Shown: positions 3,818-16,565 of the stretch, one piece after another
Layout: each line of letters starts with the position of its first letter
How positions within the stretch are numbered: position 1 is the first letter of the stretch
From: a virus
Lineage: Duplodnaviria > Heunggongvirae > Uroviricota > Caudoviricetes
Virus record (IMG/VR): IMGVR_UViG_2667527959_000010
Location: 1 to 16,565 of that record
DNA: 16,565 bases
Reading direction: 5' to 3' (one strand)
Position numbers and translations under genes: made by a program
Notes under the pieces: generated by a model
The model's database searches: none
Seen by the model: only the letters and a program-made list of their open reading frames with translations
Told to the model about the DNA's origin: nothing

Positions 3818-6800
3818 CTATATTTTTCCGCCTACGCCTTTAAACTTCTCAATAAACGAGACGATTTTCTGGAAAACTGCCTGTTTTTTCGTTTTATATT
3901 GCGGATTCAACGGACTAAGTTTTGGTAATGTTTCGTTTAATTCTGTGCCATTTTCGGTGGCGTATTCGCGTTTTAAAGACGTGCGAATATAGCGTTTTGC
4001 TGCATCTTCATTAAGATTTTCTTCTTTTATCAATGCTTCTGCTTCACGTTGCTGTTCGCGTTGAGCAAACGTAAAGAATGCGTCAATGATGCTGGCTTTG
4101 TCCGGTAAATCATCCAGGTTCGTTTGCTGAATAAAATCGACCACCAGGCCCTCTTTAGCACGGTTCCCTAGGCTTGAACGAATTAAGCGTTTGACCTCTT
4201 CGATCATTTCGCCCTTGCCTTTATTTTGTCTGTTGTGTTCGAAAATCAGTCCAAGGATATAATCCAGGTTTATTTCCTGAGACTTCAGCAAATCGACCTC
4301 AAAAACTACGTCATCCCAGTCAGTGGTTGATTTCTCTTTTTTCTCAGCTTCTTTCTCACGGCGCTGCCAGTCGCGAATATCGTTATAGGCAGAACGATAA
4401 TCCTGAATCTTGCGATCAGCAGGGAGACGAATTGTTTGCAATTCAGCGAGCTTTTCATCATCCACATAATGTTCTGCTTTGAATTTTTCTACTGCAACAG
4501 GATCGCTAAGATCGATTTGTTGCAGGGCTTTCAGCGTGGCAAATTCATCATAGTTTTGCAGGATGTTCTCGGTACGCAGGTATTCACCAAACAGTTTAAC
4601 GAAGTCTTTCTTCTCTTTTTCACTTTCAATACTGGTAGGGTCAGGGAACCGTTGTTCCAGTTCTGAAACTACTGTCATGAAGCCGCGTTTAGCTTCACCA
4701 GTGGCAGCATCAGTAAAGCCTTCCATATACTCTGCATAACTCTTTTCTAAAACCACATTTTTGGTATTTTTGTCACCAAACAGCGTTATGGCATCAATAG
4801 TTGAGCGTTCCAGATCCCGGAAAGTGACGATATTACCGAAGGTTTTAGTTGCATCATAAATACGGTTGGTGCGGGAAAATGCCTGCATCAAGCCGTGAAA
4901 ACGCAGGTTTTTATCGACGAATAGCGTGTTCAATATTGGAGCATCGAAGCCAGTTAAAAACATCCCCACGACAATTAACAGATCGATATCCTGATTTTTA
5001 ACCCGCTGGGCTAAATCACGATAGTAGTTCTGAAAACCGTTACTGTCGGTGCTGAAGTTAGTTTTAAAATAGCTGTTATACTCACGAATTGCAGCATCAA
5101 GAAACTCTTTAGCACTGCTGTCCATTGCGCTGGTATCAAAAGTTTCATCGGAAATTTCACCAATGGCATTTTGTTCTTCATTGGCAGCAAAGGAGAAGAT
5201 TGTCGCAATATGCAGCGGTTTATAGGTGGCCGATTTATTAGCTGCTTCCTCTTGTAACCGTTTAAACGTCGCGTAATAGGCTTTTGCAGCATCCACGCTG
5301 CTCACTGCCAACATAGCATTAAAACCTTTTGAGCCAGGGAAGGTACGGTGGGTTTTCTGGCGGAAATTATTCAGAATATATTGCGTGATTTCCTGAATAC
5401 GCATGGGATGAAGAAACGCCTGCTGATTTTCAGCCGCACTCAGTTTTTTCTCGTCAGTTTCTGTCTCTAAAGACTTAAACTGTGGCCGCACATCGTTGTA
5501 GTCCACCTTGAATTTGAGCACTTTTTCGTCACGAATCGCATCGGTAATTACATACGAATGCAATTCACGACCAAATACGCTGGCGGTTGTTTCTGAGCCT
5601 AAGGCGTTTTCCGGGAAAATAGGGGTGCCGGTAAAACCAAACTGATAATAGCGTTTGAATTTCTTCTTCAGGTTTTTCTGCGCTTCTCCAAACTGGCTGC
5701 GGTGGCATTCATCAAATATAAACACCACTTGCTGATTATATACAGGCAGGTCGCTTTCTGCTTTCATCAGGTTATTGAGTTTCTGAATAGTAGTGACGAT
5801 AATTTTGTTATCGTCCTTATCCAGATTTCGTTTAAGGCCTGCGGTATTTTCCGAGCCGTTGACGCTGTCTGGCGAAAAACGCTGATATTCCTTCATGGTC
5901 TGGTAATCGAGGTCTTTCCTGTCGACCACGAAGAAGACTTTATCAATAAAGTCCAGCTCTGTTGCCAGACGCGCGGCTTTAAAGCTGGTGAGGGTTTTAC
6001 CAGAACCGGTAGTGTGCCAGATATACCCACCGCTTTCCGGTTTTGACCAGTTCTTCGCTGTAAAGGAGCTCTTAATTTTCCACAGAATGCGCTCGGTGGC
6101 AGCAATCTGGTACGGTCGCATCACCAGTAGCGTCTGACTGCTGTCAAAAACGCTGTAGTTCACCAGAACATTAAGCAGAGTATGTTTCTGGAAAAAGGTA
6201 GCGGTAAAATCTTTGAGGTCTTTAATCAGCGTGTTGTCTGATTTCGCCCAGTTCATGGTGAAGTCAAAACTGTTTTTATCGCGCTTTGTTGTGTTGGCAA
6301 AATAACGGGTATCGGTGCCGTTAGAAATGACAAACAGTTGCAGATACTTAAACAGGGAATTTTCGCTGTTAAAACTCTCTTTACTGTAACGATGTATCTG
6401 GTTGAAAGCCTCACGAATCGCCACGCCGCGCTTTTTCAGTTCGATTTGTACCAGTGGTAAGCCATTAACCAGGATCGTGACGTCATAACGGTTAGCATGA
6501 GAACCCGTCTGTTCAAACTGCTGGATAATCTGCACCTTATTGCGCATGAGATTCTTTTTATCTATCAAATAGATGTTCTCAAGTCGCTCGTCATCAAAAA
6601 TAAAGTCGCAAATATAGTCGATATGGATTTTACGGGTCTTATCCAGAATGCCATCGCTCGGGTTGTCCAGATACTGCTCCGTGAAACGCCGCCACTCGCT
6701 GTCATTAAACACCACACCATTGAGGCTCTGAAGCTGTTCCCGAACATTGGACAGCATAGCCGACTGAGATTTTACGGATATAAATTCATAGCCCTGATTC

Positions 6801-6934
6801 CGCAGGTCCTGAATCAGTTCACGTTCCAGGTCCGATTCGCTCTGGTAGCTGTCGCCTGTTTGCTCAGCTTTGATGTACTTATCAAGGACGATAAAGTTAT
6901 TGGATTCAGCAATGGTGTGTGTTTGATGAGTCAT
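3818..6934 (-). CDS. hsdR: Type I restriction enzyme R subunit (HsdR), type IC-like
   Basis: 1038 aa. Walker A TGSGKT, DEAH-box FDECHR, and an N-terminal PD-(D/E)xK-like nuclease motif (D...IELKK). Length matches EcoR124I HsdR as recalled. SD AAGGA upstream of the ATG at 6934. Confidence 0.95.
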
Positions 6935-7055
6935 AGCGCATCCTTTGTGCCGCCTGGCAAGGGCCGGAAGGGCGTTAAGAGTGACTTCCGGCGCGTAAAA
7001 AATAGTCTATATACAGACCGGGTGTTAAGGTGGCCCGGTCGGTAGCAATGGTCAA

Positions 7056-8312
7056 TTAATTACTGACAGTTTCAGGTGTTGGGAAACTGAACAGTAAATC
7101 ACGATAGTACTCGTATTGTTTCTGGCGCAACTCGATTTCACGCGGAAGACCTTCGGTGATGGAGTTGGTCAGGGTGTCGAATTTATCGAGCAGAGCAGAT
7201 ATTCGCTCTTGTTTCTGTTTATCAGGCAATGGCACTGGTAATGTTTTTATAATATCTGCATTCAAGTTACTGACCGACCCGCTATTGATTTTACTTTCCC
7301 AATAATTTTTCACCTTTTTTGATGAAAGATAGTGATACAGATAATCAGCATTTAATTTTTCACCAAAATTGCTGATTGATGCCCATCCATCATGGATAGC
7401 TCCGGTTATCCTTAAAATATATGGTCTGCCAAAGCTCATAGAGTTAGAAATGACGAAATCACCGGGGTTCAAGATTCGCGATTTTTGGGCACCCTCTGCA
7501 GTTATTTTTTGTAAGGTTTTGTCAATGTATTTAGAGCCGGGTATAGTATCTCCGATTTTAATCCATGGGATACCATTTCCTTGTTCAGTAAGATAATTAA
7601 CAATTGGTCTGGGGGATGCCCCTCGTTGTATTTTGGCTACTTCTCCCAATGCCTTCCACTCAACCTCACCCTCATCAAAACTCAGCAATTGGTCGCGATA
7701 GTAGTTGTACTGTTTTTTACGCATGTTAAGCTCAGCGGTAAGCTCAGCGGTAAGTGCAGTAAATTTATCCAGAATCCGAACGATTTCAGACTGGATGGCA
7801 AGGGATTTTTCCGGATTATCCGGGCAAGGGATTGGGATGAGTAGTTTTGACATCAATGCATTTGAGCTTAGGTTCGGTTGTGCTCCGCCCCCGGCGAGGA
7901 TATAAATAGTCTCTGTATTTAACAATAAAAAATGGTATAAATAATTATTGTTTAGAATATTTTCTTTGGGTATGAATTTCCCAACCCGTTGGTTAAGATA
8001 ACATTTTGTTCCTTTTTTATAAATTCCTACCTTTCCTGTAGTGGCACCTGACATTGCAATCAATATATTTCCCATAGATACCTCAAAGGAGGATAAATCT
8101 TCCTTGTAATCATTTAGTGAAAAGTATTTCACCTCATCTAAGTCAACATTAAATCCATCTATATTTGTGATTCTGACTATCGGTAACCCAGTTTCTTTAA
8201 ATAAGCTGCTTTTAAATGCAAATCCATTTTTAAAATCACAAACATCCTTCAAGGGTTTCCACTCAACCTCAACCCCATCCAGCAATTTTTCCAGATAACT
8301 TAACTCGCTCAT
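7056..8312 (-). CDS. hsdS: Type I restriction-modification specificity subunit (HsdS), type IC-like
   Basis: 418 aa with two variable target-recognition regions separated by the conserved central region ...[33 protein letters not shown], and a C-terminal conserved repeat ...[36 protein letters not shown], as in the EcoR124I/EcoDXXI family. Confidence 0.95.
7730..7753 (-). repeat. Tandem 12-bp repeat (2 copies) encoding TAEL-TAEL in the HsdS central conserved region
   Basis: GCTCAGCGGTAA x2 on the plus strand, which is ACCGCTGAGCTT x2 in the coding sense. A degenerate partial third unit follows. Confidence 0.8.
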
Positions 8313-9871
8313 TTTTGCACCTCGCAGCCTTCAATTTCAGCCACAATTGCATCAATATCTTTACGCAACTGGTCGATTTTGCTGACCGTGGTTTTCAGCT
8401 CAGCATTCAGCTCACCGATATCGATAATTTCGCGGTTATCTTTCGCTTCCACATAGCTGCTCACCGACAGGTTATAGTCATTCGCGACAACGGCTTCAAA
8501 CGCGACAGATTTTGCCAGATGAGCAACATCTTCCTTGCTGGCAAATACCTGCATAATTTTTTCTATATGGGCATCGGTCAGAATGTTGTTGTTAGTCTCT
8601 TTTTTGAACAGTTCGCTGGCATCAATAAACTGAACTTTGGTATCCGTTTTATGTTTAGACAGCACCAGAATATTTACGGCAATGGTGGTGCCAAAGAACA
8701 GGTTCGGTGCGAGTGAAATCACGGTTTCGACATAGTTATTGTCGACCAGATACTGACGGATTTTCTGCTCCGCGCCGCCACGGTAAAAAATACCCGGGAA
8801 GCAGACAATCGCGGCGCGACCTTTGGCCGAAAGATAGTTCAGCGCATGTAGTACAAACGCAAAGTCAGCTTTGGATTTGGGGGCCAGAACGCCAGCCGGG
8901 GCAAAACGTTCATCGTTAATCAGCGTCGGGTCATCGCTGCCAATCCATTTCACCGAATACGGTGGGTTAGATACGATGGCGTCAAACGGTTTTTCATCTC
9001 TGAAGTGCGGCTCAGTCAGCGTATTGCCCAGCTTGATATCAAACTTGTCGTAGTTGATATTGTGCAAAAACATGTTCATACGCGCCAGGTTATAGGTCGT
9101 ATGGTTGATTTCCTGACCGAAAAAGCCTTCTTCGATGATATGGTTATCAAACTGTTTTTTCGCCTGCAACAACAGTGAGCCGGAACCCGCTGCCGGGTCG
9201 TAGATTTTGTTAACGCTGGTCTGCCCGTGCATAGCCAGTTGTGCAATCAGCTTGGAGACGTGCTGCGGTGTAAAGAACTCACCGCCTGACTTACCGGCAT
9301 TTGCCGCATAGTTAGAAATCAGGAACTCATAGGCATCACCGAACAGGTCAATCTGATGTTCGTTGAAGTCACCAAGTTTTAACCCTTCAACCCCTTTCAG
9401 AACCGCAGCCAGGCGGGCATTTTTATCTTTAACGGTGTTACCCAGGCGGTTACTGGTGGTATCGAAATCAGCAAACAAACCTTTGATGTCAGCTTCTGAA
9501 GGATAACCGTAAGCAGAACTTTCGATAGCAACGAAGATGCTGTTTAAATCTGCATTCAGTCTGTCATTAGTATTTGCTTTCGCAGCTACGTTGCAGAAAA
9601 GCTGACTGGGGTAGATGAAGTAGCCTTTAGTTTTGATGGCATCGTCTTTAATGTCATCAGTAATTACGCTGTCATCCAGTTTCGCATAACAGATACTGTC
9701 ATCACCGGCTTCAATATAGCTGGAAAAATTTTCGCTGATAAAACGGTAGAAAAGTGCGCCCAGAACGTATTGCTTAAAATCCCATCCATCGACCGAACCC
9801 CTGACATCGTTAGCAATTTGCCAGATTTGACGATGAAGCTCTGCACGTTGTTGAATACTTGTCATTTTCAT
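8309..9871 (-). CDS. hsdM: Type I restriction-modification N6-adenine DNA methyltransferase subunit (HsdM)
   Basis: 520 aa. AdoMet-binding motif [10 protein letters not shown] and catalytic motif NPPY ([10 protein letters not shown]). Its stop overlaps the hsdS start by 4 bp. N-terminus [13 protein letters not shown] matches my recollection of EcoR124I HsdM. Confidence 0.95.
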
Positions 9872-10010
9872 CCACTTATTTCAGGCTTATGTAATTGGCG
9901 GTGATTCTACAGCAACTTGGATGCTTTAGCAGTTCGGACATTAGGCTACGAATGACCTGCCTAGAGGTTTGTTAAGCCGCAAAGTGCTGGTGCTTTATGC
10001 CTGTGAAGTT

Positions 10011-10040
10011 TATAATTGTGTACACATAACGAGTACACGA
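10011..10040 (+). promoter_or_regulatory. phd-doc promoter -10 (TATAAT) and Phd/Doc operator palindromes
   Basis: TATAAT at 10011-10016 is followed by the perfect palindrome GTGTACAC (10018-10025) and a second near-copy GAGTACAC (10031-10038), just upstream of SD GAGGTG and the phd ATG. Consistent with the autoregulated phd-doc operator described for P1. Confidence 0.6.
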
Positions 10041-10047
10041 GGTGTTT

Positions 10048-10269
10048 ATGCAATCCATTAACTTCCGTACCGCGCGTGGCAACCTTTCTGAAGTGCTCAA
10101 CAATGTTGAAGCCGGGGAAGAGGTTGAAATCACCCGCAGAGGCCGTGAGCCAGCAGTAATTGTCAGCAAGGCTACTTTCGAAGCCTACAAAAAAGCGGCG
10201 CTGGATGCTGAATTTGCATCCCTGTTTGACACCCTGGACTCCACCAACAAGGAACTGGTTAACCGATAA
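10048..10269 (+). CDS. phd: Phd antitoxin (prevent host death)
   Basis: 73 aa, [41 protein letters not shown]..., matching P1 Phd as recalled. SD GAGGTG 4 nt upstream. The ORF track's 10042 GTG start adds two residues; ATG 10048 is preferred. Confidence 0.95.
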
Positions 10270-10649
10270 TGAGGCATATATCACCGGAAGAACTTATTGC
10301 GCTTCATGATGCGAATATAAACCGCTACGGCGGCCTGCCGGGCATGTCAGATCCGGGTAGGGCAGAGGCCATTATCGGGAGAGTTCAGGCCAGAGTTGCC
10401 TACGAAGAGATCACCGACCTTTTCGAAGTCTCCGCCACCTACCTGGTGGCTACAGCGAGAGGGCATATATTCAATGATGCCAATAAGCGTACCGCGCTAA
10501 ACAGTGCGCTGTTATTTCTACGCCGTAACGGGGTGCAGGTATTTGATTCACCTGAACTGGCAGACCTTACCGTAGGGGCTGCGACCGGAGAGATATCTGT
10601 ATCTTCTGTCGCCGACACGTTACGTAGATTGTATGGTTCTGCGGAGTAG
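10269..10649 (+). CDS. doc: Doc toxin (death on curing), Fic-family kinase
   Basis: 126 aa with Fic motif [11 protein letters not shown]. Start overlaps the phd stop (TAATG). Matches P1 Doc as recalled. Confidence 0.95.
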
Positions 10650-10653
10650 ATTA

Positions 10654-10833
10654 ATGGCACGCAAATACAACAAATTGTCCCGTGAAGCGTTAAAGATGCT
10701 TCTTGATGGCGTGAGTCGCCGCAAGGTAAAGCAATACCTGGTTGGTAAGCAAATTGGAGTCAGGACCGCTATTGCTGTGTTATGCCGTCAGGAAATGGTT
10801 GCGCTTAAACAGAGAATGCCGGGCAGCAGATAA
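10654..10833 (+). CDS. Small basic protein downstream of doc (pdcA-like by position), 59 aa
   Basis: ATG at 10654 with SD GGAG about 9 nt upstream. An alternative in-frame ATG at 10633 lies inside the doc 3' end without an SD. K/R-rich sequence; named only by position after doc. Confidence 0.5.
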   Translation: MARKYNKLSREALKMLLDGVSRRKVKQYLVGKQIGVRTAIAVLCRQEMVALKQRMPGSR

Positions 10834-10860
10834 AGCCCAATCAGTGATGAAAGGTGTGAT

Positions 10861-11904
10861 GTGAAAGCCGTAATTACTCCCTTTGTACAGAAAGAGCTTG
10901 GCCTCGCCACGTTCAAAGTGGATCAGGAGGTCAGAAAGCTGGTGGAGGCTGGCCGTAAATTTATTATGGAGCCGGTGCCGCGTGAGTTAATCGAGCACAT
11001 GGAAGACGGCCTCGTTGTTACCGAGCAAACCATGGCAACAAATGAGGCGTTGCAGCCGTTTTTTAACAGCGATGAACTGTTTCGCCGTATTGGTGGAATT
11101 GACGCGCTGGTGGCGTGGTTGCGTAGGAAAGAGGGTCAATGCCAGGCCGCAGATCGTAGTTGGTGTGACAACCATATTGTCCACGCTGAACGAGACAATA
11201 GCGCGGTGTTGTTGTGCTGGCATCACGATAACCATTATCGGATGCGTGGTTTTAATGAGCTGAAAGAAACGCTGCACAATAATCGCGTTAACTGGATACT
11301 GGATGTCGCCCGTCAGGAAATGGGCCTTTCAAATAGCCATGATTTAAGTATTCAGGAGCTGTGCTGGTGGGCTTTCATGCGCAACATGATGCACCTGATG
11401 CCGGAAGAAGTCTGCCGCATATCAATAAATAAGATGAAGGCTACTCCGCAGGATAGCGGACCTCTGAAAGAGGCGGATATTCGCCCGTATGACGATCGCG
11501 CTACAGCATATGTGCAGATGATGGAAGAACGCGCCGCGCCGATGCGTGCAAAAGTATGCCCTGTGGATGTTGACTCCGACCCTGGCATGGCGCATTTCAA
11601 AATACCAAAACTGCAATCGCTAAAATTACCTGAGTACATGGACTTTGTTGCTTCCCGTCCATGCTGTGGGTGTGGAGCTGCGGGAGCTGGCGCTCACATT
11701 ACGCCTTATATCGTTCGTCATAGTCGATTATGCGCGCATGACATTTACGCAATTCCTCTGTGCCAGTCATGCCAGCGTGATATTGAGCGTGACCGCGATA
11801 ATTGGGAGAAGACGCACGGTAGGTTGGCGATGCATCAACGATTGTTCTTTGATTACGCGCTTGGAGTGGGCGTTATCACAAGTCATTCGTCGAGTGTTAG
11901 ATAA
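10861..11904 (+). CDS. Hypothetical protein, 347 aa, with C-terminal Cys/His cluster (pdcB-like by position)
   Basis: GTG start at 10861 with SD AAGGTG (10851-10856). C-terminal region PCCGCG...H...H..LCAHD...LCQSCQ suggests a metal-binding module. Function unknown. Confidence 0.75.
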
Positions 11905-11905
11905 A

Positions 11906-11922
11906 ATTGCTCTAATGTATTG
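11906..11922 (+). promoter_or_regulatory. C1 operator-like site upstream of lpa (ATTGCTCTAATGTATTG)
   Basis: 13/17 match to the C1 operator consensus, first 11 positions identical. Overlaps a TTGCTA -35-like hexamer (11920-11925) spaced 16 bp from a TATTAT -10-like hexamer (11942-11947). Confidence 0.6.
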
Positions 11923-11992
11923 CTATTTCTTTAATCGAGGGTATTATATTCCACGTTGATTAGTTGACATGGGCTAATCAGTAGGTGACAGG

Positions 11993-12445
11993 ATGTTACT
12001 TAACTGGCAGGGACGCCACTTCATGGAAATAAATCACTCACGAATAACATCGTACGAGATTGCGGATTACATGATCCGCACTAAATCTCTTCTATCAGCG
12101 AAAGAACTCGCAGCAATTCTTGAAAAGGAATACCCGCATCTGGATGTCGATAAGCGCGATGTTTATCTGCGCTTAAAGGCTATCGCTGTGTCTAAGTATT
12201 CGTCTGTTTTGATAGATGACAGTACACGCCCACGTAGATTTCAGATCCACTCTCTGAATCCTGAATTCTTTCGCCGTAGCCGCGCTCCGCGCCGGTTTGA
12301 TGAAAAACTCCAGAACGAACTCTATATGACGCAGGACGAAAAGGAACGCCGGGAGCACCAGCCTTGGGTAATGGCGCGTCAACTTTTCAATAAGGTGGCC
12401 CGTCAGCACCGTCATTACGGTAATGCCACATCCGCACGTATCTGA
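11993..12445 (+). CDS. lpa: Late promoter activator Lpa (P1 gene 10-like)
   Basis: 150-aa basic protein in the conserved P1 position between doc/pdc and pacA, preceded by a C1 operator. Assignment is by synteny and size, not by a recalled sequence. An internal ATG at 12023 is an alternative start. Confidence 0.75.
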   Translation: MLLNWQGRHFMEINHSRITSYEIADYMIRTKSLLSAKELAAILEKEYPHLDVDKRDVYLRLKAIAVSKYSSVLIDDSTRPRRFQIHSLNPEFFRRSRAPRRFDEKLQNELYMTQDEKERREHQPWVMARQLFNKVARQHRHYGNATSARI

Positions 12446-12455
12446 TTGATTGCTT

Positions 12456-12474
12456 GCCCGTTCCGGGCCTTTTG
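12456..12474 (+). terminator. Short GC hairpin plus T-run (weak terminator or attenuator candidate) between lpa and pacA
   Basis: GCCCG-TTC-CGGGC followed by CTTTTG, 11 nt after the lpa stop. Confidence 0.35.
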
Positions 12475-12530
12475 ACATGTGACTTTCGTTACCCTCGCGT
12501 CAAAAAGAGTTTTTACGAAAGGAAGCATAA

Positions 12531-13724
12531 GTGACCTGGGACGATCACAAGAAGAATTTTGCTCGCCTGGCGCGAGATGGTGGTTACACCATCGCACAGT
12601 ATGCCGCCGAGTTTAATCTTAACCCTAATACCGCACGTCGTTATCTCCGTGCATTCAAAGAAGACACCGGAACAGCGGACAGCCGTAAGCCAAATAAGCC
12701 TGTCAGGAAACCACTAAAAAGCATGATCATTGATCACGCTAATGATCAACGTGCAGGTGATTACGTTGTGGCTGAAATGGCTGAAAAACAAAAAGTTAAT
12801 GCTGTTGTTAGTGCCGCAGTCGAGAACGCTAAGCGCCAAAATAAGCGCATAAATGATCGTTCTGATGATCATGACGTGATCACCCGCGCCCACCGTACCT
12901 TACGTGATCGCCTGGAACGCGACACCCTGGATGATGATGGTGAACGCTTTGAATTCGAAGCTGGCGATTACCTGATAGATAACGTTGAAGCGCGGAAGGC
13001 CGCGCGCGCTATGTTGCGTCGGTCCGGGGCCGATGTTCTGGAAACCACTCTTCTGGAAAAGTCTCTTTCTCATCTCCTTATGCTGGAGAACGCCAGGGAT
13101 ACGTGTATTCGCCTGGTGCAGGAAATGCGCGATCAGCAAAAAGACGATGATGAAGGTACTCCGCCTGAATACCGTATCGCGAGCATGCTAAACAGCTGTT
13201 CCGCGCAGATAAGCAGCCTGATCAACACCATTTACAGCATCCGGAATAACTATCGAAAAGAAAGCCGGGAGGCGGAAAAGCACGCTTTATCTATGGGGCA
13301 AGCTGGCATTGTTAAGCTGGCATACGAACGAAAGCGTGAAAATAACTGGTCAGTGCTGGAAGCGGCTGAATTCATCGAGGCGCATGGAGGAAAAGTGCCG
13401 CCCCTGATGCTGGAGCAAATCAAAGCCGATCTGCGTGCTCCTAAGACCAATACCGATGATGAGGAAAACCAAACAGCATCTGGCGCTCCATCACTTGAAG
13501 ATCTGGATAAAATCGCGCGAGAACGGGCCGCCAGCCGCCGCGCTGATGCGGCATTGTGGATTGAGCATCGTAGAGAAGAAATTGCCGATATCGTCGATAC
13601 AGGTGGTTATGGTGATGTCGATGCGGAAGGCATATCAAACGAAGCATGGCTTGAACAGGATCTGGACGAAGACGAGGAGGAAGACGAAGAAGTTACCCGC
13701 AAACTGTACGGGGATGATGATTAA
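12531..13724 (+). CDS. pacA: Terminase small / pac-recognition subunit PacA
   Basis: 397 aa, GTG start with SD GGAAG. N-terminus [28 protein letters not shown] matches P1 PacA as recalled. Acidic C-terminal tail. Contains the pac site. Confidence 0.9.
12724..12882 (+). other. pac packaging site: clustered TGATCA/G hexamers carrying Dam GATC sites, inside pacA
   Basis: Left cluster TGATCA at 12724, 12731 and 12743, plus a degenerate TGATTA at about 12758. Right cluster TGATCG at 12854, TGATCA at 12866 and 12877. Architecture matches the P1 pac description (4 left + 3 right hexamers). Confidence 0.75.
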
Positions 13725-15208
13725 TGGCCAGAAGTTGCGTAACGGACCCACGTTGGCGCGAGCTGGTGGCGCTATATCGTTATGACTGGATTGCGGCCGC
13801 TGATGTGTTGTTTGGGAAGACACCAACCTGGCAGCAGGATGAGATCATTGAGTCCACGCAGCAGGACGGCAGTTGGACAAGTGTGACCTCCGGCCATGGT
13901 ACTGGTAAATCGGATATGACGAGTATCATTGCAATACTCTTCATCATGTTTTTCCCCGGCGCTCGCGTCATTCTGGTCGCTAACAAAAGACAGCAAGTCC
14001 TTGATGGTATTTTCAAATACATAAAGAGCAATTGGGCTACTGCTGTTAGCAGATTCCCGTGGTTGTCGAAGTATTTCATTCTTACAGAAACGTCTTTTTT
14101 TGAGGTGACTGGCAAGGGTGTTTGGACAATATTGATAAAGTCCTGTCGCCCCGGAAATGAGGAGGCGTTGGCTGGTGAACACGCCGATCATCTCTTGTAT
14201 ATCATCGACGAAGCGTCGGGTGTGAGTGATAAAGCATTCAGTGTGATAACAGGTGCGCTGACCGGTAAGGATAACCGTATTCTGCTTCTTTCCCAGCCTA
14301 CGCGACCTTCAGGCTATTTCTACGATTCACACCACAGACTAGCTATTCGCCCGGGAAATCCTGATGGATTGTTTACTGCGATAATACTGAATAGTGAAGA
14401 ATCTCCGCTTGTAGATGCAAAATTTATACGAGCAAAACTTGCGGAGTATGGCGGTCGTGATAACCCCATGTACATGATCAAAGTACGTGGTGAATTTCCC
14501 AAATCTCAAGATGGCTTTCTTCTTGGTCGTGATGAGGTTGAGCGGGCGACGCGGCGAAAGGTCAAGATTGCCAAAGGATGGGGCTGGGTTGCATGTGTTG
14601 ACGTTGCTGGTGGCACAGGACGAGATAAGTCCGTTATTAATATCATGATGGTGTCCGGCCAGCGAAATAAACGCCGTGTAATCAACTATCGTATGCTGGA
14701 ATACACAGACGTTACAGAAACGCAGTTAGCCGCCAAGATTTTCGCAGAATGTAACCCAGAACGGTTCCCGAACATAACCATAGCTATTGATGGCGATGGC
14801 TTGGGGAAATCGACGGCTGATCTAATGTACGAACGCTATGGCATTACCGTCCAGCGTATCCGCTGGGGTAAAAAGATGCACAGCCGTGAAGATAAAAGCC
14901 TTTATTTCGATATGCGCGCTTTCGCGAATATTCAGGCGGCAGAAGCTGTAAAATCAGGGCGTATGAGGCTTGATAAGGGGGCTGCGACTATAGAGGAAGC
15001 ATCAAAGATACCGGTAGGGATAAATTCCGCAGGTCAATGGAAGGTGATGTCAAAGGAAGATATGAAGAAAAAACTCAACCTGCACTCACCGGACCATTGG
15101 GATACATATTGTTTCGCTATGTTGGCGAACTATGTTCCCCAAGATGAAGTGCTTAGCGTCGAAGACGAAGCGCAGGTTGATGAAGCTCTGGCATGGCTTA
15201 ATGAATAA
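13724..15208 (+). CDS. pacB: Terminase large subunit PacB
   Basis: 494 aa. Start overlaps the pacA stop (TAATG). Walker A-like GHGTGKS and Walker B-like [10 protein letters not shown]. Confidence 0.9.
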
Positions 15209-15232
15209 CTCATTAACCATGCCGGATGGAAA

Positions 15233-16084
15233 CTATTGCGCGCTTTCGGGGTTGTCGTTTACTGGCTGCCCCTTCTTAGTTTTGCGGCTGCGCGTAACTG
15301 ATGCGGCTGATTTGACCTTTTTCTCTTCGCGAGTGATGGCAATTTGTTTTTTTACATTTTCAATATCTGCCAGGCGATATATTTTTGCTTGCGGCCAGCG
15401 GTCGCAGATGATCGGTTCTATGGAGTCATAAAGGCTAAATTTTGCTTTTTCGAATTCACCGTTGATGATAATTCCATCACGGAGAGTTTCATCGCAGATA
15501 AACACGCCACACAGTGGCACATGGTAACTCACTGATTTACCATCATTGTAGTTAGGGCTACTGGAAATGTAGTGGACGCGCAGCATTGTTTCGCTAAAGC
15601 CGTGTACGCGCATACGGAATTTTTCATCCTCTGGGTACTGCTTCATTAGCTCTTTTGTTGCTTCCAGGTTCTCTATGTATTTCGCACTGTGCTCATTGAT
15701 CCCCGCGCTTTTTTGGATGCGAATGTCCTTATCAATCAGATGAATAATGCGGCCAGCGGTCATGTTGACGCTGTTCACAGCTTCTGTCTGATAAGTTGTA
15801 ACCTTGCGAACACCGCGAAGGATGTTAGGCACTGGATATAAAATAGTCTTTGGGATATTGAGGTCTGGGTACTGTTCCAGTTCCCGCGCCATTAAAGTCC
15901 ATTTATCAATTTCAGCCTGAATGCTGTCAGTTTCTTTGAACGGTAGAACGACAACCGGGCGTACAGGACGACCGTCGCTGGCTGTATCAACGTGTTGGGC
16001 GCGTGCAACAGCTTTTTTTAGAAAGAGATCCCTGAAGCTGACGAACTCCTGGTACAGTTGTTCGCCGTAGACATAATTTATCAT
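15233..16084 (-). CDS. c1: C1 repressor of lysis (primary immunity repressor)
   Basis: 283 aa, MINYVYGEQLYQEFVSFRDLFLKKAVARAQHVD..., matching P1 C1 as recalled. Convergent with pacB as in P1. Confidence 0.95.
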   Translation of the reverse strand: MINYVYGEQLYQEFVSFRDLFLKKAVARAQHVDTASDGRPVRPVVVLPFKETDSIQAEIDKWTLMARELEQYPDLNIPKTILYPVPNILRGVRKVTTYQTEAVNSVNMTAGRIIHLIDKDIRIQKSAGINEHSAKYIENLEATKELMKQYPEDEKFRMRVHGFSETMLRVHYISSSPNYNDGKSVSYHVPLCGVFICDETLRDGIIINGEFEKAKFSLYDSIEPIICDRWPQAKIYRLADIENVKKQIAITREEKKVKSAASVTRSRKTKKGQPVNDNPESAQ

Positions 16085-16404: not shown

Positions 16405-16565
16405 AATTATGCCTCACTGTATTGACAACACAGAGCCTGAAGCTCTGACCTACTGTTTCACCCATGATCCATGCTGGGGTAATCTAACAACATTGCGCTG
16501 TGTGTAAGGGAAGGTGCGAACAAGTTCCTGATATGAGATCATCATATTCATCCGGAGCGCATCCC

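Follow-up and report, generated by a model that had tools for sequence, protein, structure and literature searches.

The DNA analysed here, a viral record of 16,565 bp (hereafter the window), contains a P1-type pac site within pacA in which one of the seven TGATCA/G hexamers, the innermost on the left (L4), reads TGATTA and has lost its GATC. The reading that we favour, with a probability of roughly 0.7, is that this is a true P1 pac from which L4 disappeared by drift under relaxed constraint on a defective IncY plasmid, and that the loss probably does not matter in this element. In other words, this is an element of a known kind, and the variant that it carries is rare and most likely inconsequential.

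The pac site and its gene context

The pacase of phage P1 is composed of PacA and PacB. Its TGATCA/G hexamers are grouped as four plus three, and the cut at pac starts headful packaging. Cleavage is known to require Dam methylation of the hexamers, as a preceding sequence-only reading of the window had stated; pacase recognises methylated hexamers to either side of a centre bent by IHF, and the cut falls about midway between the innermost ones (PMC10028697, PMC12707154).

The same reading had placed a pac site at 12724-12882 inside pacA and described it as two clusters of TGATCA/G hexamers, the left one made up of three perfect copies followed by TGATTA at a place where P1 was said to have a fourth GATC-containing element. 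The alignment bears out this description in all points. The window segment is collinear with positions 90722-90880 of P1 (NC_005856.1) without a gap, the interval named begins with the first hexamer and ends with the last, and P1 has TGATCA opposite the window's TGATTA, i.e. the degenerate element is not a property of the reference phage itself. The two sequences differ here by a C>T change at 12762. It affects the first position of codon 78 in PacA and turns CAC into TAC (His78Tyr). The left cluster thus retains three of its four hexamers, the fourth being a 5/6 match, and the three hexamers of the right cluster are complete. The spacings of 7, 12, 15, 96, 12 and 11 bp are the same in the window and in P1. 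The coordinates of all features are collected in Table 1.

Table 1. Features of the packaging locus (positions refer to the window)
Feature	Position	Strand	Remarks
lpa, late promoter activator driving pacAB transcription	11993..12445	+	Pfam PF25716 BPP1_LPA, E = 3.1e-57
Late promoter LPpac (-22 box and -10)	12477..12495	+	from P1 annotation 90475-90493
pacA (PacA, 397 aa, intact ORF)	12531..13724	+	98.0% nucleotide identity to P1 pacA, full length
Hexamer L1, TGATCA, outermost left	12724..12729		invariant in 171 P1-clade sequences; missing from the JK004/Salmonella clade
Hexamer L2, TGATCA	12731..12736		invariant in the P1 clade; kept in the JK004 clade
Hexamer L3, TGATCA	12743..12748		invariant in the P1 clade; TGATCA in JK004, CGATCA in three Salmonella plasmids
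Hexamer L4, degenerate TGATTA, innermost left	12758..12763		no GATC, hence no Dam site
IHF binding site AAACAAAAAGTTA	12786..12798	+	from P1 annotation 90784-90796
Primary pac cut region	12806..12815		from P1 annotation 90804-90813, cuts mapped in P1
Hexamer R1, TGATCG, innermost right	12854..12859		rare variants: TGATTG in L172, AGATCG in L114, GGATCG in L168
Hexamer R2, TGATCA	12866..12871		invariant in the P1 clade
Hexamer R3, TGATCA	12877..12882		invariant in the P1 clade
Eighth TGATCG, beyond the 12724-12882 hexamer span	12905..12910		same site in P1
pacB (PacB, 494 aa, intact ORF)	13724..15208	+	terminase of the same length annotated in NZ_CP073625.1

According to the annotation of P1, an IHF site and four primary cut positions lie in the interval that separates the hexamer clusters. 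Since pacA has no indels relative to P1, the coordinates of both can be transferred to the window, where the IHF site differs from the annotated P1 site by a single base in its spacer (12793). The concentration of TGATCR motifs is far beyond chance: the 159 bp hold six sites, where the density in the rest of the window would predict 0.11 (Poisson P = 1.9e-9), and over the whole window the motif is not enriched (25 matches, 22.6 expected). No new GATC that could compensate for L4 was found nearby; the pac span contains exactly six, and the additional site at 12905 is shared with P1. On this sequence evidence the locus is a genuine P1-type pac site with one hexamer lost.

The gene context also corresponds to that of P1. 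The site occupies approximately codons 65-118 in the 5' third of pacA, LPpac lies upstream and pacB downstream, and the 86 bp 5' of pacA (12446-12531), including LPpac, are identical to P1. PacA differs from its P1 counterpart by 10 amino acids, nine of which fall within residues 47-88. Any decay of the locus must be recent or incomplete, since pacA, pacB, lpa and LPpac are all still intact.

Occurrence of the L4 allele

Homologous pac regions were gathered with sequence patterns in which the left hexamers, the right hexamers or L4 were left free, which yielded 124 IMG/VR and 50 metagenome loci; the numbers from these collections are counts per contig, without de-replication by strain. TGATTA was found in 4 of the approximately 174 viral and metagenome contigs. 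Among the 171 fully covered sequences (73 haplotypes, window included), L4 is TGATCA in 161, TGATTA in five, TGATCG in three and TAATCA in two. In the same set R1 is TGATCG in 169 sequences and TGATTG and GGATCG in one each; the AGATCG of L114 lies outside this set. PLSDB has 571 records with the region, three of which hold the window-type TGATTA 45-mer; these represent two strains, i.e. two assemblies of Escherichia coli AW1.7 and the plasmid pTZ20_1P. In RefSeq the region is present in 558 of 5,426 complete E. coli genomes, and TGATTA only in the two AW1.7 assemblies, that is, in one strain. The allele is therefore far below 5% in each of these collections, with no sign of spread.

Besides the window-type backbone, a P1-type one, represented by the IMG/VR contig L115 (92.5% identical), carries TGATTA independently, so the allele arose at least twice. 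The P1-type combination is known only from this contig; a search of PLSDB with a synthetic 45-mer returned none. The GATC of L4 was also lost in another way, as TAATCA in contigs L110 and L165, so that its loss is recurrent. Two of these contigs, L115 (95,284 bp) and L165 (93,414 bp), have the full size of P1 and intact pacAB, and for this reason relaxed selection in defective elements is not needed for such an allele to exist.

The rarity of TGATTA, taken alone, could be thought to indicate a sequencing or assembly error. Two independent complete AW1.7 assemblies agree on this base, as do pTZ20_1P, the IMG/VR contig L032 and the metagenome contigs L152 and L156, and TGATTA appears independently in L115. 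These independent assemblies refute the idea of an error, to which we attach a practically negligible probability: TGATTA is a real, rare allele.

Conservation of the hexamers and variability of the pac segment

Across the 171 sequences and 73 haplotypes, L1, L2, L3, R2 and R3 are invariant and only L4 and R1 vary. The invariance of L1-L3 holds also in the loci that were found solely by the right-hand pattern. Third-codon positions rarely vary inside the hexamers (1 of 14, as opposed to 31 of 54 outside; Fisher P = 0.0007), which shows that the hexamers are conserved beyond the requirements of the protein. The strongest constraint at the DNA level thus concerns the five outer hexamers of the P1 pac.

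Codon 78 deserves attention in this respect. Elsewhere it is CAC (His), CGC (Arg) or, in Cronobacter phage JK004, CAG (Gln), all of which keep the TGATCR pattern, whereas TAC in the window breaks it. One could suppose that selection acted on the protein, favouring His78Tyr, and that the hexamer was lost as a by-product. The change is indeed non-synonymous and it lies in the fast-evolving segment, residues 47-88, that holds nine of the 10 differences from P1 PacA. On the other hand, the residues accepted at this position are exactly those that keep TGATCR, which speaks for a constraint on the DNA, and the Pfam HTH match in PacA stops at residue 48. We consider selection on the protein very unlikely.

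It should be noted that the pac segment is at the same time the most variable part of pacA, with a peak of nucleotide diversity (π) of 0.079 at 12750-12809 (111 unique sequences). Of the 24 nucleotide differences from P1 pacA, 22 fall within 12653-12896, and all 17 differences between the window and contig L144, in a comparison of 2.76 kb, are confined to the same interval. This interval has the appearance of a hypervariable or mosaic cassette within which the hexamers form invariant islands. Recombination near the packaging end, or a locally raised mutation rate, could explain its variability.

Within this segment the TGATTA lineage shows a nested series of changes. Positions 12762, 12793 and 12809 are T, G, C in L156 and pTZ20_1P; T, G, T in L152; and T, A, T in the window, L032 and AW1.7. 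The G>A change at 12793 is located in the spacer of the IHF site, and all 173 other sequences have G at this position. The C>T change at 12809 lies directly 3' of the first cut in the upper strand; of the other sequences, 171 have C, L032 and L152 have T and one has A, i.e. outside the TGATTA lineage the base is C in all but a single sequence. In the well-covered region of about 6.5 kb the window has six private alleles, three of them within 48 bp of the pac core.

The carrier replicon

Over positions 9740-15784 the window is identical to NZ_CP073625.1 (L184), a plasmid of the heat-resistant beef isolate E. coli AW1.7. From pAW1.7_1 (NZ_CP072540.1), sequenced from the same strain, the window differs by four SNPs and one indel. 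In pAW1.7_1 one G is missing from pacB (window position 14977 against position 16630 of L126) and the gene is split in that record. We considered this frameshift as a sign of decay and rejected it: the 1-bp deletion is present only in NZ_CP072540.1, and the window and the second AW1.7 assembly are intact. The deletion is probably an assembly error.

According to its RefSeq annotation, the AW1.7 plasmid is a 105.6-kb IncY replicon with dozens of IS copies, and its cargo includes rpoH, ttr, ptx/phn and McrBC. In NZ_CP073625.1 the rpoH copy is at 6828-7685 and a complete ttrRSBCA tetrathionate reductase cluster at 40686-48021, both as IS-flanked cargo. The plasmid covers 23.2 kb (24.5%) of P1 by local blastn, with IS1 and IS5 matches included. 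It keeps lox-cre-ref, a fragment of darB, part of gene 22 together with gene 23, repA/oriR and pmgM-pap, and also the stretch phd-doc-pdcAB-lpa-pacAB-c1-coi. In the same blastn comparison with P1 we found neither the portal, pro, head-processing and lysis genes nor those for tail fibres, baseplate, tube and sit; kilA/repL (lytic replication), c4/icd/ant, dmt, ban and the tail gene block were likewise not found. The replicon, in other words, does not carry a complete P1-like set of head, tail, lysis and lytic-replication genes. Judged by this gene content, the AW1.7 plasmid is a defective P1 remnant: because the genes for morphogenesis, lysis and lytic replication are missing, it is unable to package itself, build virions or replicate lytically. 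A literature search on phage activity of the AW1.7 plasmid returned nothing.

Two complete carrier replicons were inspected. The other one, pTZ20_1P, keeps 72% of P1 but has lost tail-fibre and baseplate genes: it misses P1 positions 31924-43291, which comprise cin, the tail fibres, gene 16, bplA, pmgA and most of sit; moreover, transposons separate lpa from pacA.

The window itself is an IS-bounded contig, as it is flanked by an IS26 end (1-61; the AW1.7 plasmid has eight copies of this element) and by the end of an IS5-family element (16509-16565; ISKpn26-like). Another feature of the window is a type I restriction-modification operon on the minus strand (3818-9871), with hsdR (1038 aa), hsdS (418 aa) and hsdM (520 aa). 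The operon lies between the pap side and phd/doc, where P1 has pmgT..humD. For the flanks of the replaced region the P1 record notes homology to the EcoDXXI and R124 hsd loci, and type IC hsd loci have already been linked to P1 DNA in the literature.

Interpretation of the loss of L4

The C>T transition in L4 leaves six methylatable hexamers in an asymmetric array, and the left hexamer nearest to the cut is now about 65 bp away, as compared to about 50 bp with L4. Retained in the window are the geometry of the site and its IHF element, together with the late promoter and intact pacA and pacB. We suggest that the change in L4 was neutral, or nearly so, and became established by drift at the hexamer under the least constraint in a relic site. 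Two more private substitutions, at 12793 and 12809, came later in the pac core. We infer that relaxed selection rather than adaptation accounts for the three changes. A helper pacase would presumably still cleave the window pac with a modestly reduced efficiency. The loss of cleavage should be moderate at most, both because the titre of a P1 mutant with disrupted hexamers falls only about 9-fold (pacA*, PMC10028697) and because alleles without L4 also occur where the contig is as large as P1 and pacAB is intact. In the present element the effect on packaging is largely moot, since the plasmid is incapable of packaging.

There is also evidence against a dispensable L4. The hexamer is kept, with identical spacing, in JK004 and its Salmonella relatives, where PacA is only about 70% identical, and an element so deeply conserved in relatives that have no L1 is not obviously dispensable.

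The sequence-only reading had proposed that the missing methylation site could alter the efficiency or regulation of packaging initiation. In an active phage, one Dam site less might indeed change the methylation gating, either of initiation or of the protection of downstream pac sites in the concatemer. The dependence of P1 pac cleavage on Dam methylation of the hexamers (PMC10028697, PMC12707154), the retention of L4 across about 30% divergence of PacA and the full-P1-length contigs with L4-loss alleles and intact pacAB all speak for such retuning. However, the matching replicon is without nearly all genes for morphogenesis, lysis and lytic replication, so there is no phage to tune, and TGATTA, at well under 5% in each collection, gives no indication of spreading. 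For this element the proposal is not supported: NZ_CP073625.1, with 24.5% of P1 and without morphogenesis, lysis or dmt genes, carries pac as a relic. We regard retuning in an active phage as quite improbable.

Slightly less improbable, but still unlikely, is an adaptive attenuation, in which changes at L4, then 12809, then 12793 were selected because they blunt a suicidal self-cleavage of the plasmid if C1 repression fails. In its favour, three nested substitutions in a functional core of 48 bp hit positions at which more than 170 other sequences show no variation or almost none, the flanking 2.7 kb or so of pacAB are essentially unchanged relative to the nearest relatives, and lpa, LPpac, pacA and pacB are intact. 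Yet a series of three changes is too short to distinguish selection from drift, variability within pacA is highest in the pac segment anyway (π up to 0.079), and 12793 belongs to the non-consensus spacer of the IHF site. The plasmid could have reached the same end more simply by losing pacA or pacB, which did not occur. A broader version would see the nested series as selected attenuation or retuning in a domesticated P1 remnant with an inducible pacase and would hold that, in general, L1 makes L4 redundant. If L1, an extra outer hexamer of the P1 clade, does make the ancient L4 redundant, this would explain why only innermost hexamers are lost. We consider this broader version doubtful as well, if a little less so than attenuation by itself.

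Drift at a relic site thus remains the reading that we prefer. What the variant does illustrate is that a single hexamer out of the seven in the classic P1 pac can disappear in nature. This might be of help when minimal or attenuated pac sites are designed for P1 phagemid delivery systems. In practical terms the value is small, and as the sequence belongs to a defective P1 remnant, the loss should have no consequence for its packaging.

Comparison with known packaging sites

The window shares with the P1 pac the position in the gene, the hexamer positions and spacings, the position of the IHF site, the late promoter and intact PacA and PacB. It differs in L4 (TGATTA, not TGATCA), in the private bases at 12793 and 12809, and in that its carrier is not a phage. 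Sternberg and Coulby reportedly found in 1987 that cleavage drops about 10-fold when a single hexamer on the right is deleted, and that such effects are additive. In the P1 pacA* mutant the hexamers were disrupted synonymously, and when it competed with a phagemid carrying wild-type pac, its titre was about 9-fold lower (PMC10028697). Both pacA* and the window lose hexamers by point changes inside pacA, but in pacA* the repeats were changed generally and in the window only one hexamer is affected; a single-hexamer L4 mutant is not described in that paper.

More distant relatives of PacA came from tblastn searches against phage and plasmid collections; in genome contigs no relative was confirmed. 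The PacA of Cronobacter phage JK004 (L177) is 70.5% identical to that of the window, and the proteins of the Salmonella plasmids CP053320, NZ_CP146848 and NZ_CP009570 (L178-L180) are 83-85% identical to that of JK004. All four have six GATC hexamers at the positions of L2-L4 and R1-R3, with spacings of 12, 15, 96, 12 and 11 bp as in P1, and their R1-R3 are identical to those of P1. These sites are without L1 and with L2-L4, while the window is without L4 and with L1-L3, so that the two six-hexamer geometries are different. As L4 is kept and L1 missing in JK004 and the Salmonella plasmids, L4 is ancient and L1 is confined to the P1 clade.

A few further GATC motifs were noted in these relatives. 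The Salmonella plasmids (501-690) have an additional TGATCA at 575, between the clusters. Outside the clusters, position 664 is CGATCA in JK004 or AGATCA in Salmonella, TGATCG is found at 690 in both, and CGATCA at 475 in JK004 only. The most distant case is an Enterobacter kobei plasmid (L181) with a PacA homologue of about 34% identity. Its in-gene cluster (776-935) consists of TGATCA, TGATCA, TGATCT and TGATCA with spacings of 7, 12 and 23 bp, and a second cluster is located just 5' of the gene (501-548). Hexamer-array pac sites may thus extend well beyond the P1 clade.
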